NCBI GenBank assembly: GCA_965140415.1
Contig: OZ223209.1
Location: 2,720,001 to 2,784,000 of the forward strand
Direction: 5' to 3'
DNA length: 64,000 nt
Source: Myxococcota bacterium
Lineage (GTDB): Bacteria > Myxococcota_A > SURF-8
Part shown: piece after piece, positions 15,435 through 38,642 of the stretch
Position numbering within the stretch: the first letter of the stretch is position 1
Layout: each line of letters begins with the position of its first letter
Program-made: the position numbers and the translations under genes
Notes under the pieces: generated by a model
What the model was told of the DNA's origin: nothing
The model's database searches: none
The model's input: the letters and a program-made list of their open reading frames with translations, nothing else

Positions 15435-15498
15435 TGTCGATTCACCGTCAACCTGACCTGTTTGAGAGACGGCTCTGTCTCCCGATTTGGGACCCCTA
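15435..15498. repeat. Conserved 64-bp module-end sequence, copy A (copy B at 34899-34962)
   Basis: Ungapped hand alignment gives about 56/64 identity; internal GAGAC-6-GTCTC palindrome. Confidence 0.85.
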
Positions 15499-16058
15499 GA
15501 GGTGCAGGTCCGCACCGTCCGTCACGATCCGCCATGGCTGCTTGTTCGAGGCGGACGGGCCGATGCGCACCATCTCAAGCACCTCGGCGTACTCCCCGGC
15601 TCTCTCACGGCTCAGCGGGTACGGAGCCCATAGCAACGCCAGCGGACGATGGGTGGAGGAGGAAATCTGCTCCGGCGAGCAGATCTGTCAAACACTCAGC
15701 CCCGCTGAAGCGGCCTGTCAATAACCCGGAAAACACCCCAAAAATTTCTGAAACGGCCGGATGCGGGAGCGCGTTCAATCCCGCCCGGTCTCGTTTCTTT
15801 TACCTGCCGACCGACAAGCATACTGTCGGATTTTCCCGATTTTCCGGAAATCGACCCAATTGGTAGTAGAGGGAGGCCCCGTTTCCAGGCCGAAATCGAA
15901 AATTCCATAGGCCTCGGGCTATACGAGTATCGGTGCCAGCATAAAAGATTGGGAAGTGCATCGGACACGGCGGGTAAAGAAGAAGGTTGGAACCTTCTTC
16001 CGCCGCGGGATGGATGCGGCTGGTGGGTATGAATGGTAGGATAGTCGGTGGGATATGC

Positions 16059-16169
16059 TCACTTCACTTTCTTCTTCAATCGCTTCGCCGCCTTGTCGAA
16101 CAGCTTGCCGGTCAAGATGGCCATGGCCTGCACGACAGCGGCCTTCAGAATGCGCGTGGTCTCCTTCAT
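16059..16169 (-). CDS. 36-aa cationic amphipathic peptide
   Basis: MKETTRILKAAVVQAMAILTGKLFDKAAKRLKKKVK; ATGA overlap with the upstream ORF stop; below the ORF-track cutoff. Confidence 0.55.
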   Translation of the reverse strand: MKETTRILKAAVVQAMAILTGKLFDKAAKRLKKKVK

Positions 16170-16456
16170 GCGTCGCGCTCGCTGTCCGCATCCCAGGTTT
16201 CAGGATCGGCGTTGTCCGTGAAGTCATCGTTCAGGTTGTCGATATCCTCGTTGGTCATGGTCAGGCGATCGAGCGCGTAGCCGACCAGGCCGCCGATGGC
16301 TCCGCCTGCTGCCGATCCGGCGGGTCCGGCTACAGCAGCGCCGACCGAGGCCAAGACCCCAGCGCCTATGGCGGCATGGCGATTCTCTCGGATGATGGCG
16401 AAAAGTCCCTTACGCGTTTCGTCCAGGTCCGTGTTCAGGTTGTCCAGGTTGTTCAT
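16166..16456 (-). CDS. Small glycine-zipper protein
   Basis: GAAVAGPAGSAAGGAIGGLVG; RBS GAAAGGA; 20 bp after the E1 stop. Confidence 0.7.
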   Translation of the reverse strand: MNNLDNLNTDLDETRKGLFAIIRENRHAAIGAGVLASVGAAVAGPAGSAAGGAIGGLVGYALDRLTMTNEDIDNLNDDFTDNADPETWDADSERDA

Positions 16457-16476
16457 TCGGGTTCCTTTCCGTCAGG

Positions 16477-17184
16477 TTATTCGACCGCCAGCCCGAAGGC
16501 CGAGCAGTCCACCATGATCTTGCGCAGGAGCGGCTGCCCCAGCGCGTGCTTCTTCACCAGGATGGCCACCAGCGCGCCGGTGAGCATCGAGTTATAGATC
16601 ACCGCCCGCGCCGTGCAGGGCAGCTGCATCGACTCCTCCGCCGGGTGCAGCATCTCCTCGTAAGCCTGCGCCCCCATCAGGTCGCCGTGCGATTTGGCGG
16701 TGTAAATCACGATGTACTCGCCGCCCTGTCGTGGGTCGATGATGGTGACAGGCCGGGCGCGGCTGCCCTGGGCCTTGGCCTGATGCCAGATCATCCGACG
16801 CGTGTCCATGCTGTCAACGCAGGAGATGACCAGGCGCTTGGGTTCATCGCGGCCAAGCATCTGATCGGTGTATCGCTGGCGGAACTGACCGGGCAGAAGC
16901 CCGGTGACACGGTAGATCTCGACACCCAGCGCCACTGCCTTGGATTGGCCCAAGTACTCAGCGCCGAAGACCTGATTCGGCTGGTTGTGAGGTTCGACCG
17001 TATCATCGTCGTAGATGTTGAGATCCGTACAGCCCATCTTGGCCAAGGCCAGCGCGGTGTAAGAACCGGAGGCTCCCGCGCCGATGATGGTGATGGGAAA
17101 ATCCAGCTTGTCGGGATGGATGATGTCCAGCTGACGGTGAAATTGGGTGTCGATGGTCGTGCGATCCATGTTGTTTCGGTCCAT
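16477..17184 (-). CDS. ThiF/E1-like adenylyltransferase, copy A
   Basis: IIGAGASGS, YDDDTVEPHNQPNQ, SCVDSMDTRR, candidate catalytic Cys in LPCTA; RBS GAAAGGAG. Confidence 0.92.
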   Translation of the reverse strand: MDRNNMDRTTIDTQFHRQLDIIHPDKLDFPITIIGAGASGSYTALALAKMGCTDLNIYDDDTVEPHNQPNQVFGAEYLGQSKAVALGVEIYRVTGLLPGQFRQRYTDQMLGRDEPKRLVISCVDSMDTRRMIWHQAKAQGSRARPVTIIDPRQGGEYIVIYTAKSHGDLMGAQAYEEMLHPAEESMQLPCTARAVIYNSMLTGALVAILVKKHALGQPLLRKIMVDCSAFGLAVE

Positions 17185-17277
17185 GGGGGCTCCTTTCTCC
17201 AATGGGTTGGTATTGTTCGGAATTCTTGTCACGGTTCCCATGCCATGCTAGGTTGAAGATCTTGCTTGGAGGGATAT

Positions 17278-18558
17278 ATGCGGACAATCACGAATCTTGT
17301 CTTTCTGCTGATGGGAGTGCTTATCGTATCGGGTTGTTCTGGTGGCTCGGACTCCTCCCCTGGCATAGATGGCGACTTCGATCATGAAAATGCGGAAGCG
17401 GCAGACGATGATACGGAATCAGAACCCGACGAGGAAGTTGTAATTGCCCCGGATCGCGCGGATCCACCAGAAACCGTGACCGTATTTGAGGCCGGTACGG
17501 ATGGGTATGCTTCTTTCCGTATCCCCGTGATTGTGGAAGCTCCTGATGGCTCCTTGCTGGCCTTTTGCGAAGGCCGGGTGAATTCGGAAGTGGACTGGGG
17601 CGATATCGACCTGGTCATGCGACGCAGTATGGATGGTGGAAGAACCTGGGGCGATCTGGTCGTACTTGGAGACGATGGCGAAAACATGGTCAACAACCCA
17701 TCGGCTGTTGTAGACCGGAGCAGCGGTACCGTTTTTCTGCTTCACACCCACGGGCTTGGGGGGGACGCAGAATTTATGATCCGCGAAGGCTGGTCCACCG
17801 GCACACGCACCGTCTGGCTCATAAAAAGTGAAGATAACGGCCTGACCTGGTCGGAGTCGATCGAAATTACCGAGAGCGTGAAGCCCGATACTTGGCGCTG
17901 GTATGCCGTGGGTCCGGTGCACGGCATTCAACTGATACGTGGACCGCATGCCGGTCGTTTATTGATCCCTTGCAATCACTCCACCGATGGTGGCGGGGGC
18001 AATGAATTCCTGGGCGCACATGCCATCTACAGCGACGATCATGGCCTGACATGGCAGTTGGGGGCTGTAGACAGCCAGGGTGAAGGGGAGATGAATCCCA
18101 GTGAGTCCACGGTCGTCGAACTGAACGATGGACGACTGTATTTCAACAGTCGGAACCAGGGCGGTGAAGGTGGTGCCAGCCGGGCAGTAACTTATAGCAG
18201 CGACGGGGGCGAAAGCTTTAATGGTCTATATGCCGGGGATGCGCAATTCATCTCGCCTGTTGTTCAGGGCTCGGTGCAGCGTTATGGCGCGATCGATCGG
18301 GGATACGAGCGCAATCACCTGCTCTTCTCCAGTCCCGGCCATCCAAGTGAACGGCGGGATCTGACCATACTCAGCAGCTTTGATGAGGGAGAAACCTGGG
18401 AATCACCTGCCGTCATTCACGAAGGACCGTCCGCGTATTCGGATCTTGTCGTCACGCAGGATCGTTGGATCGGTGTGCTGTACGAATCCGGCGAAGAAAA
18501 GACTTACGAACGTATCGTGTTCACCCGATTCGGAGTTGACTGGCTCCTCGACCAGTAG
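17278..18558 (+). CDS. Sialidase (GH33-like) lipoprotein
   Basis: FRIP motif; five Asp boxes (SMDGGRTW, SEDNGLTW, SDDHGLTW, SSDGGESF, SFDEGETW); SAYSDL; lipobox VSGC. Confidence 0.92.
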   Translation: MRTITNLVFLLMGVLIVSGCSGGSDSSPGIDGDFDHENAEAADDDTESEPDEEVVIAPDRADPPETVTVFEAGTDGYASFRIPVIVEAPDGSLLAFCEGRVNSEVDWGDIDLVMRRSMDGGRTWGDLVVLGDDGENMVNNPSAVVDRSSGTVFLLHTHGLGGDAEFMIREGWSTGTRTVWLIKSEDNGLTWSESIEITESVKPDTWRWYAVGPVHGIQLIRGPHAGRLLIPCNHSTDGGGGNEFLGAHAIYSDDHGLTWQLGAVDSQGEGEMNPSESTVVELNDGRLYFNSRNQGGEGGASRAVTYSSDGGESFNGLYAGDAQFISPVVQGSVQRYGAIDRGYERNHLLFSSPGHPSERRDLTILSSFDEGETWESPAVIHEGPSAYSDLVVTQDRWIGVLYESGEEKTYERIVFTRFGVDWLLDQ

Positions 18559-18591
18559 AAGGCATCGCTTTCATCCAACCTCACAAATCCT

Positions 18592-18945
18592 TCACTGTTG
18601 ACTGCGCGTGATCTCCGGGATCTGGGAGAGCGGTGTGGGGGTGAAGTGGATATCGCGTTCGATGGCCTGCAAACCGGGAATGCGCTGGCCGTTGATACGT
18701 GCTTCCAGGGATTCGAGTTCCTTCAGGCTGAAGTAACCGAGTTCGCCGCAGCCGGAGTGGATCTCGGCCCAACCAAAACAGGTGTCGCCGCCGTCATGGT
18801 CGAACTCGGTCAGGTACCAGACGCCGTTGGATGAATAGGCGCTGAAGAATCGCAAATGCGCGATGGCGTCCATGCCTTTGCCGTCCTGAGCGTACAAGGG
18901 CGGGATAGTCTTGCGGATGGACTGGGGGAGCAGTTTCTGTTTCAT
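18592..18945 (-). CDS. DUF2958 family protein, copy A
   Basis: IPPLYAQDG...RFF...WYLTE...FG...ELGYFSLKELES...IERDIHF. Confidence 0.85.
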   Translation of the reverse strand: MKQKLLPQSIRKTIPPLYAQDGKGMDAIAHLRFFSAYSSNGVWYLTEFDHDGGDTCFGWAEIHSGCGELGYFSLKELESLEARINGQRIPGLQAIERDIHFTPTPLSQIPEITRSQQ

Positions 18946-19043
18946 GGATTGACCTCCTTGTTTGGTGGAAAAAGGACGCACCGGTCCGGGCCATCCGGGG
19001 TGGATGGCTGGTAAGTGGCTGGGATGTAAGGGAAATTCAGGCT

Positions 19044-19139
19044 AGAATGCGCTGTCTTCTTCTATACTTATAGCATATCTGAGAGTGGTTTTTCAGATTT
19101 GGAAAAATGGAGTTTGTTACATCGCCAGAAGTGGTCACC
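19044..19139 (-). promoter_or_regulatory. Conserved 96-bp intergenic block upstream of DUF2958, copy A
   Basis: 94/96 identical to 38547-38642 by hand alignment; minus-strand TGCTATAAG extended -10-like box. Confidence 0.8.
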
Positions 19140-22100
19140 CGTCCAGAACCGCCCGCACCTTCTTCGCCAACGCCTGCGGCGTGTAGGGTTTGCCGATGAA
19201 GTCGACGCCTTCGTCCAAAACCCCATGATGGGCGATCACGTTTTCCGTATAGCCGGAGGTGTAGAGGACTTTCATGTTTCCGAATCTCTCTTGAAGCTTC
19301 TCGACCAGTTGTCTGCCGTTCATGTTCGGCATGACGATATCCGTCAACAGGAGGTCGATATGCAGGTTTTCGTCTTCCACTTTGGCCAGCGCGTCTCCGC
19401 CGGAATCCGCGTGGTGGACGGTGTAGCCTTGCCGCTTGAGAATCCTGATGGCGATTTTGCGCACCATGGATTCGTCTTCCACCACCAGGACCGTCTCCGT
19501 CCCCTTCGGCAGATCGTCCATTTCGGTCTTCCTGATGAACGCTTCCGCCCGCTCGACCACCGTCGGGAAATAGACTTTGAAGGTAGTGCCTTCACCCCGT
19601 TCGGAATACACCTCGATATGTCCACCGTGCTGCTTGACGATGCCGTAGACGGTCGCAAGACCCAGGCCCGTTCCTTCGCCTTCCTTCTTTGTCGTAAAGA
19701 ACGGGTCGAACACCTTCTTTCGGGTTTCCTCATCCATACCCTCGCCGTTGTCGGAAACGGCCAGCATGACGTAGTCACCGGGCTCCACGTGCGGATGGGC
19801 GCGGCAATACGCTTCATCCAGCTTCACATCGGCGGTTTCTACGGTAAGTTTTCCTCCGTCCGGCATGGCGTCACGGGCGTTGACGGCCAGATTGACCAGG
19901 ATCTGCTCCACCTGGCCGACATCGGCCTTGACGTGTCCCAATCCTCGCGTCGGGATCGTCTGGAGATCCACATCCTCTCCGATCAGGCGTACGAGCATTT
20001 TGTGCATGTTGTCAATCAGCTCGTTTAGATCGAGCACCTTCGGCTTGATGATCTGTTTGCGGCTGAAGGCCAGAAGCTGGCGAGTCAGATTCGCCGCGCT
20101 GTCTGCAGCTTGATTGATCTCCGACAAAGCATCCAACAGCGGATCACCCGGCGTCAGGTCCATCATGGCCAGCGACACGTTGCCGGTGATGCCGGTGAGC
20201 AGGTTATTGAAGTCGTGGGCCACACCTCCGGCCAGCCGGCCGACCGACTCCATCTTCTGGGCTTGATTCAGTTGCTGTTGCAGCTTCTCTTTTTCTTCGG
20301 CGTCCTGATTGGCTTTTGTAACGTCGTAAATGGCGCCCTGGATGTTTACGGGATTTCCACTGGCATCGGGGATGCAGCGAGCCACGTCGCGCACCCAGCG
20401 CAGGCCTCCGTCCTTACGTTGAATCCGATACTCGCTGTCCGCTACAAACGAGGGGTCGTTCATCAGCCTTTCGCCCAGTTTCCTCACCCGGGGCAAGTCC
20501 TCCTGCAAAATAAGATCGCTCCATACGGTCCGTCCGGAAAGGAAATCCTGCCCATCGTAGCCGGAGATTTCCTTCACCATGCCGTGAAAATAGTAGGGCT
20601 TGAAGGTCAAATGCGACGCCTGATACGCGATGCCGTTGAAGTTTTCGATGAACAGGCGATGCTTCTCCTCGCTGGCCCGCAGCTCCGCTTCCGCCTGTTT
20701 CCGCTCTGAGATGTCTCGTGTGATCCCCTGAACGGCCGTGGGCGCACCCTCCTTGTCATAAACCCATGTGGCGCTTGCCTCGATGTCAAGAATCGATCCG
20801 GCTTTGGTGTGCTGCTGGAATTCTTGCACGATGGAGGGCAAGCGTTCTTCTTTTGGGAGTGCAAGCTGTTCGGCCATGAGATTCATGATCGCTTCGGCCG
20901 ATTCCTCCGTTACATAGTCGGCCACCGTCATCTGCATGACCTCTTCCTGCGTAAAGCCGGTCATCCGCATTACGGATGGACTGACGTAGGAAAAGCGGCC
21001 ATCAAGCTCCATTCTCCAGACGACGTCCGAGGAATTCTCGGCGATGAGACGGTATTTCTCCTCGCTATGTCGAAGCTCCTCTTCGGCGTGCTTACGCTCG
21101 GAGATGTCGCGGATCACCACCAGCGTCCCCTGCCGATCTCCCGATTCAAACAGGGCTCCGTTCAACTCACCCACGAAACGTGATCCATCCCGGCGTTTCA
21201 TCAGCAATTCAAGGTTTCTGGATTTGCCGCCTTCGTTCACCGATTCTTGAAACCCCTGCATGGCCTTCGGAATGGAGGATTCATCCAGAAAATCCATGAA
21301 ATGCCGCCCCAGCATGTCTTCCGCCGCCAAACCGAACACCGACGAGGCCGCTGGAGAGGCATAGGTGATAATCCCCTCCGTATCAGTTAGGGATATGAAA
21401 TCAGTCGACTGTTCTGTCATGGATCGGAAACGCTCTTCACTGGCGTGCAGATCCGATTCCGATTGTTTCACATCCGTGATATCCCGCACCCACTCCACCA
21501 GGTATTCCGCATCGCCATGCTCGTTGTGTATCGGAAAGGCGCGAATTTCCGCCCAGATGCCCTCGACAACCTTTTTTCGCACCAGCACGGTTTCGCCGTT
21601 TTCCAGCACCCGTTTCGCTTCACAATCGGGACACAAATCGTCGAAGCCGCGATAGGTCGTATAGCACTTGCTTCCCAGGACGCGCTTTTCCTGCTCGACA
21701 GCGCCGAAGCCATTCCAGTTGGAGTAGACGATATTCATGTCCCGGTCGTGGACGGAGAGCATGTCGGGAATGGAAGTGAACAGCTTGTCCAATAGCAGTC
21801 TATTCTTTCTGATTTCATCTTCGGACTGCTTGCGTTCGGTGATGTCGGTCATGATGGCGACCATGCCGGTGATGTTGCCGGATGAATTCCTCATCGGTGC
21901 TGCATTGACGGAAAGCAGAATTCGTCGACCATCCGGCGTTTCCACACCGTGCTGAACGTCGAACACGGCGTGACCGGATTGCATGACCCGATTGAAAGCC
22001 AACTGATCGTCGGGAAATGGACCGCCATCGATATCACAGATTTTCCAATGCGGATCGTTGTACGTCCGCTTAAGGAGTTTATCTTTCTGCAACCCGAACA

Positions 22101-23055
22101 ACGCTTCCGCAGCCGGATTGGCATAGCTCAGTCGCCCATCTGGATCCACCACGGTAATGCCGATCGGGCTGGTGTCGGTGATGTTTCTCGTCAACTCGCT
22201 TTGGGAGTATAGCTCTGCTTCGGCGCGTTTTCTGTCCGTTATGTCTCTGACATTGACCTGAATGCCCTCCACCCGTCCTTTTTTCCGTATCAGAGCGGCA
22301 TGAAACTCAACGTAGATCGTATGCCCGTCCTTGTGTCTACACTCCATTTCGACCTGATGCAGTGGATCGTCCTGGGAGAGCACCCGCTTGAACAACTCCA
22401 TGATCCTGGCTACGCTGACCCTGGCGTATTTGGCGAAATACGTGACACGTTTGCCGAGCACCTCTTCCGGCTCAAGGCCGAAAATGTCACGGACGCGGTC
22501 GTTGACATCCACCACCTTTCCCCAGCGGTCGATATACAGGATTTCATCGGGCGAATTATGGAAAATGAGCCGATAGGTGTCCTCCGCCTCGTTGCGCTCC
22601 CTTTCTGCTCTCGCAAGTTCGCTGATGTCCGTTGCGATGTGGACGATGCTCTGCAGGTTTCCAGCGTCATCGAATATCGGTGTACAGGCCACATGATAGG
22701 TTCCATGCATGCCCTGCATGATCATGGTTTCAGCTTGCGGTTTTTTTGAAGCGACTGCTTTTTGAAGGGGACAGCCTTTCGCAGGTCCGGATTCCAGATG
22801 GAACACCTGGTGGCACTTGCGGCCCTTGAGTTCTTCCAAAGAAAGACCGGACACATCCTGGGCGGCTTTGTTGGCATGAAGAATGGTATGATCCGGCGCT
22901 ACGATCAACGCATTATGCGGGATTGCGTCAAGCAATTGAGGCGGCCGAACCATGGAGGCGAGATCATTATCAGTTTCTTTCAGTCTCGCGATCTCCTCCT
23001 TGGCTGCCTGAAGCTCCTCGATCAGCTGCGCCTTGGTTTTTGGGTCATCGGACAC
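19135..23055 (-). CDS. Multi-PAS hybrid sensor histidine kinase/receiver
   Basis: About seven PAS/PAC repeats, [38 protein letters not shown] start after GGAGG. Confidence 0.95.
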
Positions 23056-23376
23056 TGCAGCCTCCTTTGCGGCCTGGTGCATACTGCCCTGATAATACAG
23101 CGAATATACTTGCCAATACTGCAAGTCAGTAGCTTACAATGATACCAGATAAAAGGCTAAAGAAAAGTAGGAAAGCACTCTCAATGTAGCAATATACGGT
23201 TTGATCCTGCCGACATGCATCTGAACTGAGATGTTGGCTGAATTCAATCTGTTCTGGTCGCGCCGTTTCCGCGAACTCACCTTCAAGTGACCCACTGCTC
23301 TTCCTGTTCGTGCCAGTTAAGAGAATAGCTCTGCATTTTTCCACCGCCAAACCCTCTGGCTCCTTGCCGCTCAGTA

Positions 23377-23860
23377 TTGCCCGGACAAGTTTGGGTGACC
23401 GTCTCCGGTTTGACGATGATCAGATGTTCTTTCCAGTCTGACCAGCCAGATATTAGTGCATCGCCGTCCACAGGCTCTGCTCACCGAAAAAGACAAATTT
23501 CAAGATGCACTCGGATTTTACAGAAAGCACAAACCGTTCCGAATAGGCGTTCAGGTCGGGGCTTCTGATCGGGAGGCGAATCGGTTTCACACCAGCGTCA
23601 TTGAGAATACGCCGAAATGATGCGCAGAATTTCGTATCTCGATCCATGATCAGATAGCGTTGGCCGTCCAGACACCCCAAATCCGCCATCGCCGCGTTGA
23701 TCGCGCCCCGTTTCATCCAGTCCTCGTTCGGGTTGGGCGTGATGCCTGCAAGATGAACCTTCCGGCTGCCGACCTGGATGAAGAACAGCACGTAGTACGT
23801 AATCAGCCCGAAAGGCGTGAAAACCTCCGTCGTAAAGAAATAGCAGCCGGAAACCTATGT
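23377..23860 (-). pseudogene. Fragmented integrase-core (rve) transposase
   Basis: [10 protein letters not shown]...[23 protein letters not shown] plus a separate WKEHLIIVKPETV piece. Confidence 0.75.
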
Positions 23861-23924
23861 CATGTTTTTTATTCGGTGACGAAGTTTCGTCGGTAAAACT
23901 TCAAAATGCCTTGGCGCGTAGCAC

Positions 23925-24016
23925 CGCGAACATTCGCGCACAATCGACGCACATACGTGACAACTGGGGGAAATATACTATGACCATACGCTGGAGTTGG
24001 GTCTTCCTGTTCCAGC
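23925..24016 (+). repeat. 92-bp leader, copy 1 (copy 2 at 26952-27043)
   Basis: Identical 28-bp core ACTATGACCATACGCTGGAGTTGGGTCT with similar flanks. Confidence 0.85.
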
Positions 24017-24070
24017 GTATTGTTGCCGAATTTCAGCGAGTACACGTGACATGGAAAGGAGAAGAAAGAA

Positions 24071-27803: not shown

Positions 27804-27808
27804 GTTAA

Positions 27809-29429: not shown

Positions 29430-29688
29430 AGCTTTACGCAATAACATTATGGAAGAAATAGAGCGAGTTGAGCAAGAAGGCAGTGATTTCTCGGCTCTGT
29501 TCCCGCTCATTTCGGGCGAGCGTGCCCGTCAAGTCTGGAAAAACGGTGATGCTCAAAATGCGATGCTCACGGTAGGGCAATCTGTTGGTCGGATCGATGA
29601 TATCCCCACCGTTGCCGAACTCGTCTCTCGCATGGTGACAGAGTGTCAGCAATCGTTGAATTTAGCGCAACAACAGGTAGGAAGTTAG
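29430..29688 (+). pseudogene. C-terminal remnant of nitronate monooxygenase/FabK-like gene
   Basis: RALRN...GQSVGRIDDIPTVAELVSRM; no N-terminal part upstream. Confidence 0.65.
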
Positions 29689-29743
29689 GTCATATTGGAT
29701 CTGTTCTGCCGCTGTGTGTAGATTAAAGGATCTGGGCAGCTTA

Positions 29744-30160
29744 TTAAGATAAGCGATGCCACACTGCTCGTTCTAATGTCTCCGTTAAATTCGACAGGAC
29801 ACGTTGTTGGATAAATATCGTCTCCATAATGGCTTTTAGGCTGTTGTTTTCGACACTTGCTTCCTTACTTAAATCAACCTTCCGCATAGACCAGTCTGGG
29901 AAGATCCTTTTGGCAACATTGTCTTCTTGATTTAATACCAGAACATCCTGATGACGACTATCGCTTCGAATTCGTCCCATTAGCGGGTCAATTGTTTCCT
30001 CTGGTCCTTCGATTATCTGGAAAAACAGGTCACCTGAGACCATAAAGACCCCAGTGATGTCATCCCGCTTGTTGTTAGCGGCAGCCTTGTCAGCCAACTC
30101 TTGAATATCCTCAGATGAAAGAGCCTGCGCAAAACGGCTGATATACTTGATTCTCTTCAT
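29744..30160 (-). CDS. BLUF-domain blue-light sensor
   Basis: KYISR, NNKRDDITG, FFQIIEG, IRSDSRH, RIFPDWSM (conserved Tyr, Gln, Met). Confidence 0.93.
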   Translation of the reverse strand: MKRIKYISRFAQALSSEDIQELADKAAANNKRDDITGVFMVSGDLFFQIIEGPEETIDPLMGRIRSDSRHQDVLVLNQEDNVAKRIFPDWSMRKVDLSKEASVENNSLKAIMETIFIQQRVLSNLTETLERAVWHRLS

Positions 30161-30184
30161 CGCTATCTCCTTATCATTTGCTAA

Positions 30185-30634
30185 CTATGACTTGTCTGCG
30201 TATTCTTTTATTCGAGTCGCCAGCCATCTTGCATGGTCAGCTTCCTGTTCGGCAATTTTCAAGAGTGTTTCACGATCGTTTCCTTCAAACTGGTCTGCTA
30301 GGGCGGAGTAAAATAGCTCAGCATTGTTTTCGGCGTCTTTGGCCAAGACGAGAGCATCCTCATAAGAGATTTCATCAGCGTTTTTCCATATGGAAACCGT
30401 TTCGACAAAATCAACCTCTCTGTCTGCTTGATCCGGCAGGGCGGCAGCATCCATTGTCCGCCATATTTCTTCTATCTGCCGTTTGTGTTCTTGTTCCTTT
30501 TCCGCCATTTCATCGAAAAAGGATTGAGCACTTTCGTTATCCGTGTATTCTTTGAGTGACCTGTAAAAGTCGCTCGATGCCTGCTCCGATTCGATGGCAT
30601 TCCGTAGGGCTTGGCGTATGCTAAATTTCTCCAT
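30185..30634 (-). CDS. Rubrerythrin/ferritin-like protein
   Basis: AIESE...FY...EQEH and AE...FY...EADH di-iron motifs. Confidence 0.88.
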   Translation of the reverse strand: MEKFSIRQALRNAIESEQASSDFYRSLKEYTDNESAQSFFDEMAEKEQEHKRQIEEIWRTMDAAALPDQADREVDFVETVSIWKNADEISYEDALVLAKDAENNAELFYSALADQFEGNDRETLLKIAEQEADHARWLATRIKEYADKS

Positions 30635-30789
30635 GTTGCACCTCTCGATTTCCCATTTATTAAACGGAATTGTACCGCACACCTTTAAAACTTCCAACGA
30701 TTAAACAAATAGATTTTCATTTCACTTAAATCGAGGGTACTATGCTATGATCGAATCGTGAGGAAACATAAACAACGAGGAAATGAACA

Positions 30790-31512
30790 ATGAAAACAAG
30801 GAATATGGGTGGTGACCTTGTATGGATACTTTGTATATCGTTAACACTAGCTTTTGCTTGCAACGACAAGGATGATGATAACCAAACAGATGGCGATCAG
30901 TATACTATTGTGGATGGAGACACGACTGACTCCGAAGAAGATACAATGGTCGATGGTGACCAAGACTCCATGGAAAATGAATCTGAAGATGACAACGAGG
31001 AGTTGATTTCTCAAACCGTCTTTTCTCCTTATGTAGAAGAAGAGAAAACAGTGGCCTATGTAGATCTCCCCCGATATTTGGGAAAATGGTATGAAATCGC
31101 AACCTACACCATACCCTTCCAAGAAGGTTGTACTGGCTCAACCGCAACGTATTCCCTAAACGAAGATGAAAGCATTTCCGTCGCCAACGAATGTTTCCTG
31201 GAATCGCTCAACGGAGAGTACAAGATTGATACGGCACGGGCTGAGGTTGTGAATACGGACTCCAATGCAGAGTTGGTCGTGTATTTCACCGAAGATTTCG
31301 GGGCCGACTACTGGATCATCGAGCTTGATGGTCAGGATACGGAAGAACCTTACGAATGGGCCGTAGTCGGAAGCAGCCTATCTATTTTTCTTTGGGTTTT
31401 GAACCGAACCCCACAGATGGACAATGGCCGACTTGATCTTATTTTAGAAAGGCTGGAAACCAGAGGATATGATCTTGATAACCTCGATTTCACCATACAG
31501 CCAGAAGAATAA
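30790..31512 (+). CDS. Blc-like lipocalin lipoprotein with acidic DGD linker
   Basis: Lipobox AFAC; VDLPRYLGKWYEIA, DYWII, LWVLNRTP. Confidence 0.9.
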   Translation: MKTRNMGGDLVWILCISLTLAFACNDKDDDNQTDGDQYTIVDGDTTDSEEDTMVDGDQDSMENESEDDNEELISQTVFSPYVEEEKTVAYVDLPRYLGKWYEIATYTIPFQEGCTGSTATYSLNEDESISVANECFLESLNGEYKIDTARAEVVNTDSNAELVVYFTEDFGADYWIIELDGQDTEEPYEWAVVGSSLSIFLWVLNRTPQMDNGRLDLILERLETRGYDLDNLDFTIQPEE

Positions 31513-31523
31513 AAAGCTGTTTC

Positions 31524-31991
31524 ATGGGACTCCACCGTATTAATCAGAAGTTGGAGCTTCCCATTTCCGTAGAGGAAGCATGGCACTTTTTCTCCGATCC
31601 GCGGAATCTTTAATGCATCACCCCGGAGGAAATGGGGTTCACGATCACCAATGATATCACTTATCCGGTCTATCCGGGAATGATCATCACATATCGTGTT
31701 TCACCATTATTGGGGATTCCCATGACTTGGGTTTCGGAAATAAGCCATGTAATTGAAGGCAAGCTTTTTGTTGATGAGCAACGCTTTGGACCCTATCGTT
31801 TCTGGCATCACAAGCACCTATTCCATCCAATGACTAGCGGGGTGATTATCGAAGATATTGTAGACTATGCATTGCCTTTCGGCCCATTGGGAGACTTGGT
31901 CCACGCGGTTCTGGTTAGGCGTCAATTAAAGGGCATTTTTGACTATAGGTCAAAGGTTCTGCTGAAACTCTTTAGCTCAGATTCAGAGTGA
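31524..31991 (+). pseudogene. SRPBCC-family protein with in-frame TAA at 31611-31613
   Basis: MGLHRINQKLELPISVEEAWHFFSDPRNL*CITPEEMGF...FVDEQRFGPYRFWHHKH. Confidence 0.8.
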
Positions 31992-32978
31992 TTCCTTATC
32001 AACTTCATTGCGAAGTTGAGCCTGCCGAACAAGCAATTCCCAAAGTTGCTCGCGCATAGTTTCCGTCTCCCGAGTTCCAGGAAGCAGATGTGTTTTACGC
32101 TGCTTCCGATCAAACCAGAACCGACCACTGCTATCCTGAGGTGATTCTGCCGCTGCCAGCCACTTAATAGTATCCGCTCCTTGTTCAGGTGTTCTTAAAA
32201 TAGCTTTGGTGACTCTGTAGAAGGTGGGAATGGACGTCTTCACCGCAGGTGTATCCGCCCAGCCAGGATGCATGGCGTGAAAACGAATTGGTGTATCGGT
32301 ATACTTTTCGGCCATAAGTTCGTTTACAATAACCATTGCGCGTTTGCTGTTCGCATACGCTCTGACTCCATCAAATACCCTCGTGTCCCAGTTTAGATCT
32401 TCAAGATCAAGTTTCTGTGGGTACATTCCTCCAGAGCTGACATAGATGACTCTAGCTCTTTTGGCGTTTTTCAATTGGGGAAGCATCAGGTGGGTCATGA
32501 GAAATGGTCCCAATATGTTTGTGGCCCATGTCAGTTCCAACCCGTCATTTGTCAAAATACGTTCCGAAGGCAAAACACCGGCATTGTGAATCATGATATC
32601 GAGATGCGATTCGCTGTATCTATTCACAAATTCATGTATGGAACTGAGGGATGATACATCTACAACATGCAAGGTAAGATTGGCATCGTCAATTTCCGAA
32701 CGGATTGTTTCGATAGCATCTAAACCTCGTCTTCTATTCCTGCACAACATGTGAACCCGAACTCCTCGACTGGCAAGAAAACGGGTGGTTGCAAACCCCA
32801 TACCGCTATTGGCGCCTGTAACAACAGCCACCTGTCCTGAAAGATCTACGTTTAGATCCGATTCGCTGAAAGATAGTTTATGAAGAAGGAAGCCGGTTTT
32901 ATCGAAACTGAATACGATCGTTTTATCAGTGAAAAAGGTGACCATTCGACCTGAATAATGCAACCATTTCGAAGACAT
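31983..32978 (-). CDS. Short-chain dehydrogenase/reductase (DHRS12/retinol-dehydrogenase-like)
   Basis: TGANSGMG, HNAG, VSSGGMY, YANSK, MHPGWADTP. Confidence 0.92.
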   Translation of the reverse strand: MSSKWLHYSGRMVTFFTDKTIVFSFDKTGFLLHKLSFSESDLNVDLSGQVAVVTGANSGMGFATTRFLASRGVRVHMLCRNRRRGLDAIETIRSEIDDANLTLHVVDVSSLSSIHEFVNRYSESHLDIMIHNAGVLPSERILTNDGLELTWATNILGPFLMTHLMLPQLKNAKRARVIYVSSGGMYPQKLDLEDLNWDTRVFDGVRAYANSKRAMVIVNELMAEKYTDTPIRFHAMHPGWADTPAVKTSIPTFYRVTKAILRTPEQGADTIKWLAAAESPQDSSGRFWFDRKQRKTHLLPGTRETETMREQLWELLVRQAQLRNEVDKESL

Positions 32979-32994
32979 GGTTTTATTCCCTTCT

Positions 32995-33627
32995 CTAAAA
33001 GCCGAGGACAATAAGTAACCAGAAAATGAGGCTGCCGAGAAGTGGTACAGCAAAATTATCCCATTCACCACCAAACAACTCAACCATCGTAACCAGTAAC
33101 CCACCAGAAACCAATAGTTCCAGCGACAGCTCGGCTCTGAGCAAACTTCCAACTAGGTAAGCTGACCCAACTCCCGCAGAATAGAAAACGGTTGATCCCA
33201 AGAGTGTCTTGTCTGCATTAAACAAACGGATCTTCCCAAAGCTTATACCGGCGATCCTTGCTAGCGGATCTCCGATGGCGGCAAACATGGTAGCAGCCAG
33301 GGCCGCTGCTTTTGGAAAGCCTGCAAACAAATAGAGGAAATTGATGATAGTGGCGGCCATAATGAAATGGGTGATAGCACTAATTCGCGTTATCTCCTTT
33401 TTCCTGACCATGTTGAGCATGAATGAGGGGAGATTCTCTCTGACAATCTTCGATCGCGTCCGAAAATAATCTGCAACCGAGATGGTGATGCCCAGAATGA
33501 GTAGAACAATGGCTCCTGTGAAATCAGATAGATAGAAGTATATGATAGCCGATGTTGCGGCTATCATATGGAAACCAGCACGAGTAAGCTCCAGTCGGCG
33601 ATATTCAGGCATTATCAGGGACGCCAT
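32995..33627 (-). CDS. Dolichol/phytol kinase family membrane protein
   Basis: RAGFHM, IGDPLARIAGISFG...KTLLGS, VE...DNFAVPL; multiple TM segments. Confidence 0.8.
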   Translation of the reverse strand: MASLIMPEYRRLELTRAGFHMIAATSAIIYFYLSDFTGAIVLLILGITISVADYFRTRSKIVRENLPSFMLNMVRKKEITRISAITHFIMAATIINFLYLFAGFPKAAALAATMFAAIGDPLARIAGISFGKIRLFNADKTLLGSTVFYSAGVGSAYLVGSLLRAELSLELLVSGGLLVTMVELFGGEWDNFAVPLLGSLIFWLLIVLGF

Positions 33628-34748
33628 CTGCTTTGTAAATGTGATTGACCGACACCAAATTCGTTTTTAGCCGTCATTTCAACCAGCCTAGTATCAACAT
33701 CCTGCTGCATACAATCACCGATGAGATAGTCATACAGTTCAGTCTGGCCATTCAAAACAGCCAGGAAGAAAGCTGTCATGTATTTCTGCGTCAGCATGCG
33801 CGTGACGAAAGGATCGTCAGTGCCTTTAGGGCAGATGGCGCAAGCAAGACCACAATCGGGATCATCCACAAACGACATGTGGTTAGCTCCAAGCACGTCG
33901 ATTTGAATGGCCGGGCTTTCCGCATAGGTATAGTACTGTTGGAAGTTCTCGGCAGACGGGGCGCAGGAAAGAGAACCCTCTCCGCCATTGACTGTTTCAC
34001 CGAGAGCGACAAAGGGTATGGATATATCGGGCATCTTTTCGGGCGTTACCGAAGGGTAATCTTCGGGTTCATGATCAATCGGTGGTGCGCTATCTACCGG
34101 ATCAACCCCGAATATTGCTTTGGGACGCGGATCCTGGCTTGCGAGCAGAAATGAGAGCTTGCCACCCATGGAATGTCCGGCCAGACCAATAAGACTCTCA
34201 TCCACTTTGCCAGACAACTTCACGTTTTCCGAATCGGTAGCCCAGTCCAACAAAGCGGCCAGATAATCTGCTTGATCCTGATGCGTTTCCGGGTTTGAAA
34301 AACCTCCCGGCATCTGTGGCATGATAACGACAAATCCCCAAGAAGCAAGTCTCTCACCATAAGACAAGTACATATCGGGACTGGCCGAAAAGCCATGTGT
34401 GAAGACTACCAAAGGCATACGTTCACTGATTTCTGGTATCATCAACACAAGATCCAAAACCACGATTTGGTCAGTTTTCTCAATGGCGAGTTGATCGGTA
34501 TCCTGATTGAAAACATAGATCCCATTGACCGTGACATCTGGAATCGGGTTTTCATGATCATCAGCAAATTCGCGATCCCCATTTTCCTGAAAATCATTGT
34601 CGCCATCGACAGCAGCTTCTTCCTGGTCGAACTCTAAATTATCGATGTCTCCGTCGATCGGCGCTTCATTATTTTCATTATCGGTGCATGAACAAATCAA
34701 TAATGTAGCGACCACGGATATCGATAAGTTGACGATTAAGCGTTTCAC
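33615..34748 (-). CDS. Chlorophyllase-like alpha/beta hydrolase lipoprotein
   Basis: PLVVFTHGF, GHSMGGK nucleophile elbow, GVDPVD, CAP...N, NHMSFVD; lipobox ICSC. Confidence 0.75.
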   Translation of the reverse strand: MKRLIVNLSISVVATLLICSCTDNENNEAPIDGDIDNLEFDQEEAAVDGDNDFQENGDREFADDHENPIPDVTVNGIYVFNQDTDQLAIEKTDQIVVLDLVLMIPEISERMPLVVFTHGFSASPDMYLSYGERLASWGFVVIMPQMPGGFSNPETHQDQADYLAALLDWATDSENVKLSGKVDESLIGLAGHSMGGKLSFLLASQDPRPKAIFGVDPVDSAPPIDHEPEDYPSVTPEKMPDISIPFVALGETVNGGEGSLSCAPSAENFQQYYTYAESPAIQIDVLGANHMSFVDDPDCGLACAICPKGTDDPFVTRMLTQKYMTAFFLAVLNGQTELYDYLIGDCMQQDVDTRLVEMTAKNEFGVGQSHLQSRWRP

Positions 34749-34898
34749 TAGGTCCTCCTGGGAGCCGATAAGGGCGGACGATCAAAGGATCAATGCTCTA
34801 TAGCCAATATAAACTCAGTATTATCGGGTAGATCTATTAAGATATCAAACAATTCCGACCGAATAAAAACTCCAGTAATAGTAGATATCAATCCCTGT

Positions 34899-34962
34899 TG
34901 TCGATTTGCCGTCAGCCTGACCCGTTTGAGAGACCGCTCTGTCTCCCGGTTAGGGTCCCCTA
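34899..34962. repeat. Conserved 64-bp module-end sequence, copy B
   Basis: Homologous to 15435-15498. Confidence 0.85.
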
Positions 34963-35373
34963 TGGTCTGATTTAAGCTCTACCGGTATCCGAGCTGGAAC
35001 GACTCCCCGCGCTCCACTGCTCCACCGATTTCGATGGTATAGCGTGTAAACAACCGCGGGAAGAGAACATTATCTTCATTACCTCCACAAAAGACATACC
35101 CTTATTTTGTGGAGTAGTGGAGCGTATAAGGTCTTTCCCGCGTAAGATTAGTTACTTAACTCGTTCCACCACGCGCTCCACCGCTCCACCGGATGGGCTT
35201 CCCGCGTAACAGTCCAGACGATCGGAATGGATCGGCACCGGATGAGGAAAACGTGTTCCGCCTAAACCACCTAAAAGAAGAAGCGCAAGGGCTCCTTCTC
35301 CGCCGCTTTGCGCGGCTTGGGGATGGATGGTGGGATCGGGTGGAAGGAAATACCGCTATTACGCTTACGAGAA

Positions 35374-35574
35374 CTAGCGCTTGGTGAACTTCCGGATCAG
35401 CAACTCCGCTCCGAGCTTGACACCTTCGGTCGCGGCCAGGGCCAGGAGAGTGACCAGAATGTCAACCTGACCCTTGCTGGCCTTAGTCGTAACGGGGTTT
35501 GTGGCGCGATCGACGCCTTCTGGGGCGGGGATGGCCTTCGGTTTCGTGTCGTTCATGTCCATCGGCTCCTCCAT
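35374..35574 (-). CDS. Small protein with hydrophobic/cationic C-terminus
   Basis: TGATG coupling to the E1 stop (alternative start after GGAGGAG); ends ILVTLLALAATEGVKLGAELLIRKFTKR. Confidence 0.6.
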   Translation of the reverse strand: MEEPMDMNDTKPKAIPAPEGVDRATNPVTTKASKGQVDILVTLLALAATEGVKLGAELLIRKFTKR

Positions 35575-36284
35575 CAGCTTTCGCTTACGAGAACTACGGC
35601 CGAGCAGTCCACGACGATCTTGCGCGGGAGCGGCTGCCCCAGCGCGTGTTTCTTCACCAGGATGGCCACCAGCGCGCCGGTGAGCATACTGTTGTTGATC
35701 ACCGCTCGCGCCGTGCAGGGCAGCTGCATGGACTCCTCCGCCGGGTGCAGCGTATCCTCGTAAGCTTGCGCGCCCATTAGGTCGCCGTGGGACTTGGCGG
35801 TGTAGATCACGATGTACTCGCCGCCCTGACGCGGATCAATGACGGTGATCGGTTTCGAGCGTGTGCCTTGCGCCTTTGCCTGTTCCCAGATCGTCCGGCG
35901 AGCCGCCATGTTGTCCACGCAAGAGATGACCAGGCGCTTGCGCTCGTCACGACCGAGGGGCTGGTTGGTATATCGCTGGCGGAACTGGCCAGGCAAAAGA
36001 CCGGTGACGCGGTAGACCTCGACGCCCAGCGCCACAGCCTTGGGATGGCCCAGGTATTCCGCGCCGAAGAGTTGATTGGGTTGGTTGTGCGGCTCGACCG
36101 TGTCGTCGTCGTAGATATTCAAATCAGTGCAACCCATCTTGGCCAGCGCCAGGGCGGTGTAGGAGCCGGAAGCACCGGCGCCGATGATGGTGATGGGGAC
36201 GTCGAGCTTGTCCGGGTGGATGATATCGAGCTGGCTGTGAAACTGGGTGTCGAGGGTCGTGCGGTCCATGTTGTTTCGGTCCAT
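35574..36284 (-). CDS. ThiF/E1-like adenylyltransferase, copy B
   Basis: Close paralogue of 16477-17184 with the same GAGASG, DDDTVE, CVD and LPCTA motifs. Confidence 0.92.
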   Translation of the reverse strand: MDRNNMDRTTLDTQFHSQLDIIHPDKLDVPITIIGAGASGSYTALALAKMGCTDLNIYDDDTVEPHNQPNQLFGAEYLGHPKAVALGVEVYRVTGLLPGQFRQRYTNQPLGRDERKRLVISCVDNMAARRTIWEQAKAQGTRSKPITVIDPRQGGEYIVIYTAKSHGDLMGAQAYEDTLHPAEESMQLPCTARAVINNSMLTGALVAILVKKHALGQPLPRKIVVDCSAVVLVSES

Positions 36285-36429
36285 ACTCGCTCCTTTCATG
36301 CTCCTTTCATGTAAGCTGTTGATTTGGTAAGGTTATTTCGCTATACTAAGCGATGTTGCTTTTCGACGTTTGATATGTTCCTTAGTGTGAAGAGGTTGAT
36401 TCCAGAGAAACGATAGGAGCGGAACGAAC

Positions 36430-38103
36430 ATGCGTATTTTAGCTTCAATTATTGTCCTGCTCAGTCTGACGATAAGTATGCAGGCGGTAGCAGATGAAGA
36501 TGTTGGTAATATCGCCATTGTCGAGGATTGGGATAACTCGATCCTGGTTTTTCCGACTTCAAATATGCCCAACGTCTTTTTAGCCAAAGTCGCCTGTCTA
36601 TTTTATCAGACGCACCAGGATCAATACGATGCTTTATTCGTATTCAACACTGCAATCTCTAATACACAACAAGGCTGGACCGTACGCAGTTTCACAGAAG
36701 GGATCGGCAAGCAGATATTCGATGGCACGACCACCTTCTGCGCCAATAACGGCCGCTTGCGGATCACCGTGAACATGGGTAACATCAGCACGTTGCCCTT
36801 TTCACCGGATGAAAGGGCCAATATCATACTCGGCTACCCCCTGACGGGAATTGAACTGCAGTGCCATGAGTTCGGGCATCACTGGTTGGCTTCCGTCAAT
36901 TATGACAAAGGCAGCGGCAGAGAATGCATGCTGCGAGGCTACGAACCCATTTTGGACCCCTTGCCTGGGGATCCCATGTGCAGCGGCGTTTATCTGAAAG
37001 ACTTCAACCAGCACTGGTCGAACAATTTCAATTCTTGTTCACTCATGTATGGCAGTTGCATCGAGGATCTTGGGGGAGGAAATTTCCGCTATACCTATGA
37101 CAATGTGAAATACAGTCAGTTGGATCAATACCTTATGGGTTTGCGCACCAAGGATGAAGTGGATCCCATGTTTTTAGTGGATACTGGTGAACTTTCTGGG
37201 ACGGGGGCATTGCCCATGCAGCATGGTTCCAGTCAGAACCATACCGGCGTACGCGTCGATCTTACCATTGATGACATCATCCGTGAAGAAGGTGAACGTA
37301 ACCCTCCATCCGATATGTGCCACTGGAAGGCGGCTTTTATTCTGGTGCACCCGGCTGGCCAACCGCCGACTCCGAATCAGATTCAGGCGGTGGACAATTA
37401 CCGTTTACGTATAGAAAGCTACTACCCATACGCAACCGATACTCGCGGCAGTTTCGACACCCGGCTTGACGGATGCGGTAGTGGAACGGATGCATGCCCG
37501 GGCGATCCCTCTCCACAATGTGGTGCGCTACCGGACGGAGACGCTGATGCCCCCGCTGATGGCGATGTGGATTGTACCTTCAACACTTTCCGCTGTTCCG
37601 ATACTGGGGCGGTCGAAATTTGTAACCCACAGGGTGAATGGCAACACCTGATGGATTGTGATCCTGGAATGCAATGCCTGGATGGCGAATGTATCCTGAA
37701 AGAGGATGGGGACATCTCCGATCAAGACGGTGATGAATCCTCCGATGGAGATACTGTGGATGATGTGGTTGATGGTGATGAATCCGCTTCGTACTGCACC
37801 TACAGCGAGACCCGCTGCATTGAGGGTACATTTGAGGAATGCAGTCGCCGCGGTGAGTGGCGCCTTGCAGAAGACTGCGAAGCAAAAGGTATGATTTGTC
37901 GGTCCGGTGAAGGTTGTGTAGACCAAGGTGGTCTTCCAATCGATGGCGATGGAAATGATTCTTCTTCAGTCGGTCAGGAAAATGGGTCTGAAGTGGGTTG
38001 TACAACTACGGAAGCACCTTCCATGCTCCTGTTAGCTTGTCTGATGATGTTGTGGGCAAGGAGAAGAACGTCCGTGTACGGCAGGGTTCCGTTCATCGGT
38101 TGA
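36430..38103 (+). CDS. Secreted zincin-like (HEFGH) protein with Cys-rich repeats and MYXO-CTERM-like sorting signal
   Basis: Signal peptide (AVA), HEFGHHW, DGD linkers, GCTT...LLLACLMMLWARRR tail. Confidence 0.8.
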   Translation: MRILASIIVLLSLTISMQAVADEDVGNIAIVEDWDNSILVFPTSNMPNVFLAKVACLFYQTHQDQYDALFVFNTAISNTQQGWTVRSFTEGIGKQIFDGTTTFCANNGRLRITVNMGNISTLPFSPDERANIILGYPLTGIELQCHEFGHHWLASVNYDKGSGRECMLRGYEPILDPLPGDPMCSGVYLKDFNQHWSNNFNSCSLMYGSCIEDLGGGNFRYTYDNVKYSQLDQYLMGLRTKDEVDPMFLVDTGELSGTGALPMQHGSSQNHTGVRVDLTIDDIIREEGERNPPSDMCHWKAAFILVHPAGQPPTPNQIQAVDNYRLRIESYYPYATDTRGSFDTRLDGCGSGTDACPGDPSPQCGALPDGDADAPADGDVDCTFNTFRCSDTGAVEICNPQGEWQHLMDCDPGMQCLDGECILKEDGDISDQDGDESSDGDTVDDVVDGDESASYCTYSETRCIEGTFEECSRRGEWRLAEDCEAKGMICRSGEGCVDQGGLPIDGDGNDSSSVGQENGSEVGCTTTEAPSMLLLACLMMLWARRRTSVYGRVPFIG

Positions 38104-38446
38104 TCTGTCGGATCTCCGGGATCTGGGAGAGCGGCGTGGGTGTGAAGTGGATGTCCCGTTCGATGGCCTGTAGGCCGGGAATGTGCTGGCCGTTGATGCG
38201 GGCTTCCAGGGATTCGAGTTCGGAGAGGCTGAAGTAGCCGAGTTCGCCGCAGCCGGGAAGGATCTCGGCCCAACCGAAACAGGTATCGCCGCCGCCGTGG
38301 TCGAACTCGGTCAGGTACCAGACGCCGTTGGAGGAATAGGCGCTGAAGAAGCGCAGATGCGCGATGGCGTCCATGCCTTTGCCGTCCTGGGCGTACAGGG
38401 GCGGTATCGCCTTGCGAATGGACTGGGGGAGTAGCTTCTGTTTCAT
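38093..38446 (-). CDS. DUF2958 family protein, copy B
   Basis: Near-identical to 18592-18945. Confidence 0.85.
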   Translation of the reverse strand: MKQKLLPQSIRKAIPPLYAQDGKGMDAIAHLRFFSAYSSNGVWYLTEFDHGGGDTCFGWAEILPGCGELGYFSLSELESLEARINGQHIPGLQAIERDIHFTPTPLSQIPEIRQINR

Positions 38447-38546
38447 GGGTTAGCCTCCTTGTTGGTAGGGAAATGGGCGCTCCTGTCCGGGGCATCCGGA
38501 GTGGATAGCTGGACAGGTGGCTGGGATGAGAAGGGAAAGTCAGGCA

Positions 38547-38642
38547 AGAATGCGCTGTCTTCTTCTATACTTATAGCATATCTGAGAGTGGTTTTTCAGA
38601 TTTGGAAAAATGGAGTTTGTGACATCGCTAGAAGTGGTCACC
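38547..38642 (-). promoter_or_regulatory. Conserved 96-bp intergenic block, copy B
   Basis: 94/96 identical to 19044-19139. Confidence 0.8.

Follow-up and report, generated by a model that had tools for sequence, protein, structure and literature searches.

The integrative and conjugative elements (ICEs) of the SXT/R391 family carry hotspots of variable DNA which share identical boundaries, for example directly after a stop codon, and differ in their contents, and the incongruent core-gene trees of these elements have been put down to recombination between co-resident elements in the part of the account drawn on here (Wozniak et al. 2009, PMC2791158). Operons encoding ubiquitin-like proteins (Ubl), JAB peptidases and E1 and E2 enzymes, some of them on mobile elements, are described in the portion of the survey used here (Table 1, rows 6a-6e of Iyer, Burroughs and Aravind 2006, PMC1779556). 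The locus considered here lies in a stretch of 64,000 nucleotides (the window; contig OZ223209.1, positions 2,720,001 to 2,784,000 of the forward strand) of a Myxococcota bacterium (assembly GCA_965140415.1) whose metagenome-assembled genome consists of one contig of 5.98 Mb. The window contains two copies, A and B, of a module in which a gene for a DUF2958 protein and a gene for a small ThiF/E1-like enzyme (E1) are separated by an unrelated gene on the opposite strand. The DUF2958-E1 pair is not an element in its own right and probably forms the end of an operon that belongs to tRNA-integrating elements of one family and is split at two hotspots, HS1 and HS2, so that the window would hold one such tail (B) and a mosaic duplicate (A). 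This reading is built on the anatomy of the module and its boundaries, on the occurrence of the slot in empty and filled states, on the compositional contrast between cargo and anchors and on purifying selection on both anchors, all of which are observed.

Comparison of the window with itself by BLAST yields three collinear blocks (all E <= 2e-15), in agreement with an earlier note on this DNA which had claimed that the module order occurs twice. The blocks pair 18610-20265 with 38111-39768 (74% over 1666 nt, extending into both kinases), 16498-17197 with 35598-36297 (84%, 700 nt) and 15435-15498 with 34899-34962 (87.5%, 64 nt). On the minus strand both copies consist of the 3' end of a hybrid kinase gene, a non-coding block, DUF2958, the gene on the plus strand, ThiF/E1 and a small open reading frame (ORF) (Table 1). 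DUF2958 and E1 are indeed close paralogues (94.6% amino acid identity over 112 aa and 87% identity, respectively), and the block of about 96 nt directly after the kinase stop codon, singled out in the same note, differs between A and B at only about 3 positions. Similarity between the copies ends, just as had been reported, at the DUF2958 stop codon on one side and at the E1 ribosome-binding site (RBS) on the other. What lies between these two points is unrelated and on the opposite strand in each copy, being a sialidase with a BNR_2 match in A (X_A) and a zincin-like protein in B (X_B), and copy B carries the 11-bp tandem duplication that had been noticed at this junction.

The genome holds five full DUF2958-E1 pairs (A to E) and one E1 fragment beside an insertion sequence (IS). 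In three of the five pairs (C, D and E) the slot is empty, and DUF2958 stop and E1 start are separated by 11 nt which include the E1 RBS. Slot states were tabulated for 12 close DUF2958 copies from this genome and the relatives G001, G002, G004, G006 and G009; the sample of the class comprises 10 genomes, with a close E1 in 5 and a close DUF2958 in 6. E1 lies directly downstream in half of the 12 copies, with the 11-nt spacer in C, D, E, G006 and G009 and with an ATGA overlap in G002a, while an ORF of 66 aa on the same strand, with ATGA overlaps on both sides that point to translational coupling, occupies the slot of G002b. An antisense gene followed by E1 is found three times, encoding the sialidase (A), the zincin-like protein (B) and, in G001, a glycoside hydrolase family 2 (GH2) glycosidase with a lipobox. 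The two remaining copies have an antisense major facilitator superfamily (MFS) transporter followed by an IS630-like transposase and no E1 (G004), and a small serine recombinase (resolvase) after DUF2958 (G002c). Every filled case is interrupted at a point after the DUF2958 stop codon and before the E1 start, and all three filled pairs retain a complete E1 N-terminus. The 3' end of the cargo lies 33 nt (A), 5 nt (G004) or about 100 nt (G001) from the DUF2958 stop, or overlaps it by 11 nt (B), and the cargo brings a leader of its own of 81 nt in A, 145 nt in B and about 115 nt in G001, the last estimated by eye. Filled copies keep the stop codon and part of the RBS motif on the DUF2958 side, and the motif occurs again before E1. 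HS2 is a fixed slot between conserved anchors which is filled by unrelated host-like genes, as the earlier note had proposed; a search of the genome and its relatives for other cargo, which the note had suggested, met different genes at the same point in G001 and G004.

X_A matches the sialidase family BNR_2 in Pfam (E 8.5e-36), is convergent with DUF2958 and has a lipoprotein signal peptide, and a FRIP motif, Asp-boxes and a lipobox can be recognised by eye. X_B has no match in Pfam and none to an NCBIfam family at E <= 0.01; inspection by eye reveals an HEFGH (HExxH) motif and a C-terminus composed of Cys, a hydrophobic stretch and RRR. The earlier description of X_B as a zincin/MYXO-CTERM protein is therefore retained for the zincin-like motif and dropped for MYXO-CTERM, a label that no NCBIfam model matches at E <= 0.01 and that is a resemblance by eye only. 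The nearest homologue of X_A is 41% identical within the class and no more than 45% identical among 401 genomes of the phylum, X_B is a member of a multi-copy family specific to the lineage (best match 61%), and a search of the class and the 401 phylum genomes found no donor of either window cargo. GC content at third codon positions (GC3) has a median of 0.609 in this genome (5-95% range 0.472-0.717, 1309 long frames). It reaches 0.71-0.86 in the backbone (E1 0.81-0.82, DUF2958 0.76-0.81, Ubl 0.86, JAB 0.75, a 546-aa protein 0.72, PolA and DUF927 0.71) compared to 0.53-0.63 in the cargo (X_A 0.585, X_B 0.525, the hybrid kinase HK_B 0.537, CheB-CheR 0.633, the G001 cargo 0.595). By this compositional measure the anchors appear foreign and the cargo host-like.

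Both E1 proteins of the window (frames 16477-17241 and 35574-36299) score above the Pfam cut-off for ThiF PF00899 (51-55 bits vs 28.1; 51-57 bits over all E1 proteins scored), the nucleotide-binding GxGxxG motif is invariant as GAGAxGS in 14 of 14 E1 sequences, and profile searches match UBA5 (5.7e-13), ThiF (4e-11) and also Cap2. E1 is accordingly predicted to be a genuine adenylating-domain protein; it falls below the cut-off of every NCBIfam model. DUF2958 matches PF11171 with 54.4 bits (copy A, frame 18592-18981) and 59.9 bits (copy C) at a cut-off of 21. A third gene follows E1 in 10 of 10 pairs and encodes a protein of 64-99 aa that has a single hydrophobic or glycine-zipper segment. Purifying selection acts on both anchors in every pair, filled copies included, with a median ratio of nonsynonymous to synonymous divergence (dN/dS) of 0.12 (about 0.1 for E1_A); together with a synonymous divergence (dS) of 0.44-1.4 among the copies, this low ratio indicates that the copies are old and maintained. 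Between its small gene and its end block, copy C (L001:9090-10077; genome 3344090-3345077) has about 1 kb of extra DNA with a pseudouridine-synthase-like ORF, which is a further variable point downstream of E1.

The anchors have a wider distribution than the module. A survey of small E1 proteins gave 97 E1 matches in 99 loci, and relatives at 26-42% identity occur in 43 viral-contig loci and in many metagenome-assembled genomes (MAGs) of Myxococcales, often in several copies. A JAMM motif is present in the upstream frame on the same strand for 71 of the 97 matches, and a hidden Markov model (HMM) built from these frames matches within 400 nt of 63 of the 97, a count which is partly circular since the model derives from the same frames. 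DUF2958 adjoins E1 in only 5 of the surveyed loci, all from the class of the window. A metagenome scan with E1 returned one distant match only, PADLOC gave weak matches to the E1 part of E1-E2 models and none for DUF2958 or the small protein, and the PHROGs matched were all families of unknown function. An AlphaFold2 model of DUF2958 from 12 sequences (mean pLDDT 44.8) is too poor for fold searching, and the predicted complex of E1 with DUF2958 scored 0.00, which is no verdict and evidence neither way.

The relationship of DUF2958 and E1 to an upstream operon is best seen in G009, where genes for a 249-aa protein, Ubl, a 502-aa protein, JAB, DUF2958, E1 and the small protein follow each other in a compact operon without inserts, JAB being recognised by its HMM directly upstream of DUF2958. 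As a reference for the ancestral state, this operon serves best. Elements B, C and E have a block encoding the 249-aa protein, Ubl, the 546-aa protein and JAB in common (79-100% amino acid identity), so that sister elements, of which the earlier note had spoken, do exist in the form of these three, and their JAB gene lies upstream of DUF2958 on the same strand at a distance of 9.2 kb (B), 22 kb (C) and 27 kb (E). This interval is HS1, which holds 9-27 kb of differing genes between boundaries common to B, C and E. A hairpin followed by a T-run, recognised by eye and with a similar stem in the three copies, stands 3' of JAB on one side, and a common promoter/leader block of about 125 nt precedes DUF2958 on the other. 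The Ubl ends with KVDGG followed by 4-5 residues, and its orthologues in C and E match ThiS (E 2e-4 and 9e-4) with 22.1 and 20.2 bits, below the curated cut-off of 22.5; the 271-aa frame with the window's own Ubl has no Pfam match. The 546-aa protein likewise has no Pfam match, and shows a weak match (E 0.76) to an E2 chain. Element E further encodes a giant primase-helicase-exonuclease-PolA protein, a D5-like protein and a P4-type integrase.

Copies A and B lie within one island of 62.5 kb which is located at a tRNA-Ala gene and covers nearly the whole window. Its second attachment (att) repeat is found about 900 nt past the end of the window at genome 2784896-2784943 (48/48 identical, blastn-short), and no third copy of the 48-nt repeat occurs between the island ends. 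The island of copy C measures 62.4 kb, is located at tRNA-Pro and has an 88-nt repeat (97.7% identity) next to a different integrase. The earlier note had envisaged tandem accretion of sister elements, a view that is not supported for the window: with the att repeat confined to the island ends and copy A lacking a backbone of its own, A looks like an internal mosaic partial duplication. Neither A nor D has its own Ubl/546-aa/JAB block, and A also lacks its own replication genes. DUF2958_A and DUF2958_B are sisters (support 90/94, dS 0.44), E1_A and E1_B are not (dS 0.72). The kinase end, promoter and DUF2958 of copy A are common with B, but for its E1, small gene and end block the closer copies are C and E; these split affinities suggest that A is a mosaic partial duplicate whose history changes at or near the slot. 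D and C have 4.6 kb in common at 88.7%.

On the reading proposed here, an accessory operon of tRNA-integrating elements has DUF2958 and E1 as its last conserved genes and would have been opened up in this genome at two fixed positions between genes, namely HS1, which separates JAB from DUF2958, and HS2, the 11-nt spacer from the DUF2958 stop to the E1 start. HS2 would take one convergent host-like gene for a secreted or membrane protein, and only insertions which spare both anchor genes would persist under selection. Homologous recombination through the conserved anchors, which are present in many copies, may then replace one cargo by another as in the hotspots of ICEs, and five copies in one genome offer ample anchor homology for this. 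In the window, B would be the complete tail of an element and A a partial duplicate of mosaic origin, both within a single tRNA-Ala island. We infer cargo exchange, which was also part of the earlier proposal, from the mosaic histories of the anchors and not from direct observation. Several points weigh against this scenario. Neither a donor nor an alternative allele of either window slot was seen, the slot sample is small and its related copies are not independent, and all four cargo genes have the same orientation, which selection on the insertion site alone does not explain. The trees are star-like, and one common origin of the filled copies is neither demonstrated nor refuted (approximately unbiased test, p-AU 0.20 and 0.49). 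Furthermore, no Pfam family for a relaxase, for type IV secretion or conjugation or for a capsid is found among 57 window ORFs scanned, many ORFs having no match at all.

The shared features of the filled copies could also stem from one old split in an ancestor of A, B, G001 and G004, followed by ordinary local gene turnover at a site with no special properties. All three filled pairs carry the same improved RBS (AAAGGAGC) before E1, unlike the empty copies, A and G001 have about 33 nt of leader in common, and the DUF2958 genes of the filled copies are mutually nearest by path length, a single clade being compatible with the data (p-AU 0.20). This history is nonetheless unlikely, since it would have to produce four descendants with four different cargos, each a single gene in the same orientation and packed against the DUF2958 stop, which amounts to unusually fast and patterned turnover, and the E1 tree does not group the filled copies. 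The improved RBS and the common leader speak at the same time against a different idea, namely that the spacer before E1 is a dedicated and reusable capture site which single host genes with their own leader enter in one orientation, by a site-specific or transposase-like process at the stop-codon/RBS motif that duplicates about 8-11 nt (11 nt in copy B) and leaves footprints or stacks units in tandem. Copies of the stop-plus-RBS motif do flank each cargo, the duplication in copy B is perfect, and the layout of a 4145-nt contig from the sequencing runs X3/X4 suggests two units in series. However, three cargo segments searched contain no terminal inverted repeats or hairpin sites, and no recombinase or transposase is found in or beside the slot; moreover, E1 needs an RBS anyway, so much of the apparent repeat may reflect selection, and replication slippage could yield the 11-nt duplication. 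Such a capture site therefore seems improbable; if it existed, it would constitute an integron-like platform without integron integrase or attC in an element family that carries Ubl, JAB and E1.

The earlier note had also considered that the assembly might join two strains, and a genome that is a single metagenome-assembled contig with repeats at 74-90% identity gives some reason for this concern. Short-read contigs of public runs (Logan) were aligned to 16700-36699. A contig of run X1 covers 16700-18664 with 0 differences and bridges both junctions of slot A, a second X1 contig starts at 36087, crosses X_B, reaches DUF2958_B and has, at 2128 nt, exactly the expected length, and a contig of a second sample, run X2, bridges position 17197. 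X1 may be the source sample of the MAG itself and is to that extent not a fully independent check. With both slots bridged the arrangement is not an assembly artefact, and a chimera of two strains is very improbable indeed. In the X3/X4 contig, which comes from a different study, the sialidase adjoins the DUF2958 end at 93% identity and is followed by 2172 letters without a match and by an E1 start. This contig documents a relative in which the sialidase occupies the slot, with a hint of extra DNA there. None of the 15 joints listed, out of 22, skips the cargo, and no RNA data set was among the sequencing runs listed.

Table 1. Features of the DUF2958-E1 modules, their island and the backbone operon (positions in the window unless a locus is named)
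Feature	Position	Strand	Remark
tRNA-Ala	2356..2431	+	aragorn; 3' 48 nt form the left att repeat
Tyrosine integrase adjoining tRNA-Ala	2476..3663	-	Pfam Phage_integrase, E 8.4e-17
Copy A end block, 109 nt	15390..15498	.	full 109 nt common to copies C and F; 64 nt common to B
Copy A third gene, 96-aa glycine-zipper small membrane protein	16166..16456	-	
E1_A, small ThiF/E1-like adenylating enzyme	16477-17196	-	Pfam ThiF
Slot HS2 of copy A, filled	17197..18584	+	81-nt leader and X_A
X_A, sialidase lipoprotein	17278-18558	+	Pfam BNR_2
DUF2958_A	18592-18945	-	Pfam PF11171
DUF2958_A promoter and 5' untranslated region block	18946..19134	-	about 125 nt common to most copies
HK_A, PAS hybrid histidine kinase, counted as cargo	19135-23124 (also delimited as 19135..23082)	-	3' end paralogous to HK_B (self-BLAST, Pfam)
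Copy B end block, 64 nt	34899..34962	.	
Copy B third gene, 66 aa, C-terminal hydrophobic helix	35374..35574	-	start codon overlaps E1 stop codon
E1_B	35574-36284	-	Pfam ThiF; protein 87% identical to E1_A
Slot HS2 of copy B, filled	36285..38092	+	145-nt leader and X_B
Perfect tandem duplication, 11-nt unit with stop-codon-plus-RBS motif	36289-36310	.	copy B
X_B, zincin-like secreted protein	36430-38103	+	motifs by eye
DUF2958_B	38093-38446	-	identified by 94.6% amino acid identity to DUF2958_A over 112 aa
Copy B promoter and 5' untranslated region block	38447..38637	-	
HK_B, PAS hybrid kinase	38638-41658	-	
HS1 of element B: hybrid kinase, CheB-CheR-PAS, PAS, PAS-LuxR	38638..47485	-	GC3 0.54-0.63, host-like
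JAB/JAMM peptidase gene of B	47653..48540 (start approximate)	-	HSHx7SxxD; then hairpin plus T-run
546-aa backbone protein of B	48440..50080	-	79-91% amino acid identity in C and E
ThiS-like Ubl of B	50058..50321	-	ends KVDGG plus 5-residue tail; 85-87% amino acid identity to orthologues
G009 whole operon	L019:8660-12840		uninterrupted; without the promoter block found before DUF2958 elsewhere

Several other features of the window accompany the modules. The Ubl-546-aa-JAB cassette spans 47653-52011, and its presumed partner, the small E1, lies 11 kb away beyond the cargo genes. Replication-type genes are found at 54615-63028 and encode a family-A DNA polymerase (558 aa), a DUF927 protein, Fic and an IS481-like helix-turn-helix protein; in their place C and E carry a 1530-aa primase-helicase-exonuclease-PolA fusion. 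A caspase-WD40 protein and a DUF4384 protein are encoded inside the island at 10564-12717, a combination characteristic of systems for conflict or signalling. A 96-nt stretch (73% identical) at 23080-23175 and 47483-47577 ends at the start codons of HK_A and the PAS-LuxR gene and is probably a common promoter or leader of sensor genes. A conserved association of the module with CheB-CheR or kinase genes was ruled out, as it occurs only in this genome (copies A-D) and not at the relatives' loci. An IS21 IstB fragment at 14714-15139 abuts the end block of copy A; the 64/109-nt end block was considered as an att site and discarded, as it is not tRNA-derived and the island repeats lie elsewhere. 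An IS5-type transposase gene is located at 27967-28986 and recurs, at 91% identity, next to the truncated E1 fragment (genome 4155720-4156112). A 92-nt repeat (89%) at 23925-24016 and 26952-27043 corresponds to the leader and first codons of a LamG-domain gene (26991-27803), its copy at 23925-24016 seemingly being a remnant. An Rfam scan of 14000-40000 gave no match, and promoter and terminator scans of both copies gave numbers of sites that did not exceed those of shuffled sequence.

Integrative elements are already known to carry hotspots whose boundaries are fixed. What is new is the element family, a hotspot inside an 11-nt operon spacer, a cargo that consists of a single antisense gene for a secreted protein and the progressive splitting of a Ubl-JAB-E1 operon. 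Provisionally, the elements appear to form an undescribed tRNA-integrating family in uncultured Myxococcota; the literature was searched by the name DUF2958 and not by element family, and this full-text search found nothing relevant. If the proposed splitting at HS1 and HS2 is correct, the hotspot architecture of ICEs would also work at the scale of an 11-nt operon spacer, host-type secreted glycosidases and a protease-like protein would be loaded onto a mobile backbone, and the series from compact to interrupted operons may help to find the function of the small Ubl-JAB-E1 cassette.

The closest parallel are the hotspots HS1-HS5 of SXT/R391 as described in the part of the account consulted (Wozniak et al. 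2009, PMC2791158), where sister elements likewise have a syntenic backbone and intergenic variable DNA with constant boundaries. In the present family an integrase with att repeats, a backbone that is syntenic in B, C and E and the boundaries of HS1 and HS2 correspond to these properties. Measured against the same part of that account, the differences are that no conjugation genes were found here, that the slot is an 11-nt spacer inside an operon, that the cargo is one antisense host-like gene instead of a multi-gene cluster, that the backbone genes are unrelated and that several old copies (dS 0.4-1.4) reside in one genome. Integrons do not account for the slot, with no recombinase beside it and no terminal repeats in three cargo segments, and neither does an IS or composite transposon, as the cargo has no transposase or terminal inverted repeats and is flanked only by the repeated spacer motif. 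Phage morons are single genes with their own upstream region which lie between conserved genes of a mobile element and deviate from them in composition. The cargo of HS2 is like a moron in being a single gene with its own upstream region between conserved genes and with a composition unlike its flanks; unlike morons it sits in an integrative element, in which no phage structural genes were detected, and the same point is reused with different genes. A small ThiF-family protein (about 245 aa) on mobile elements is likewise part of the PRTRC cassette of ICEs and plasmids, a cassette to which E1 does not belong (NCBIfam TIGR03736, 38.9-43.4 bits vs a cut-off of 144.75). The operon itself resembles Bil-like operons and those of row 6d, the latter as far as the consulted portion of the survey describes them (Iyer, Burroughs and Aravind 2006, PMC1779556), in combining an E1 and a JAMM peptidase with a Ubl whose di-glycine is followed by a C-terminal tail, and it departs from the Ubl/JAB/E1(/E2) operons described in the survey in that its E1 is very small (about 235 aa), that cargo interrupts the operon and that only in this lineage DUF2958 is placed between JAB and E1.

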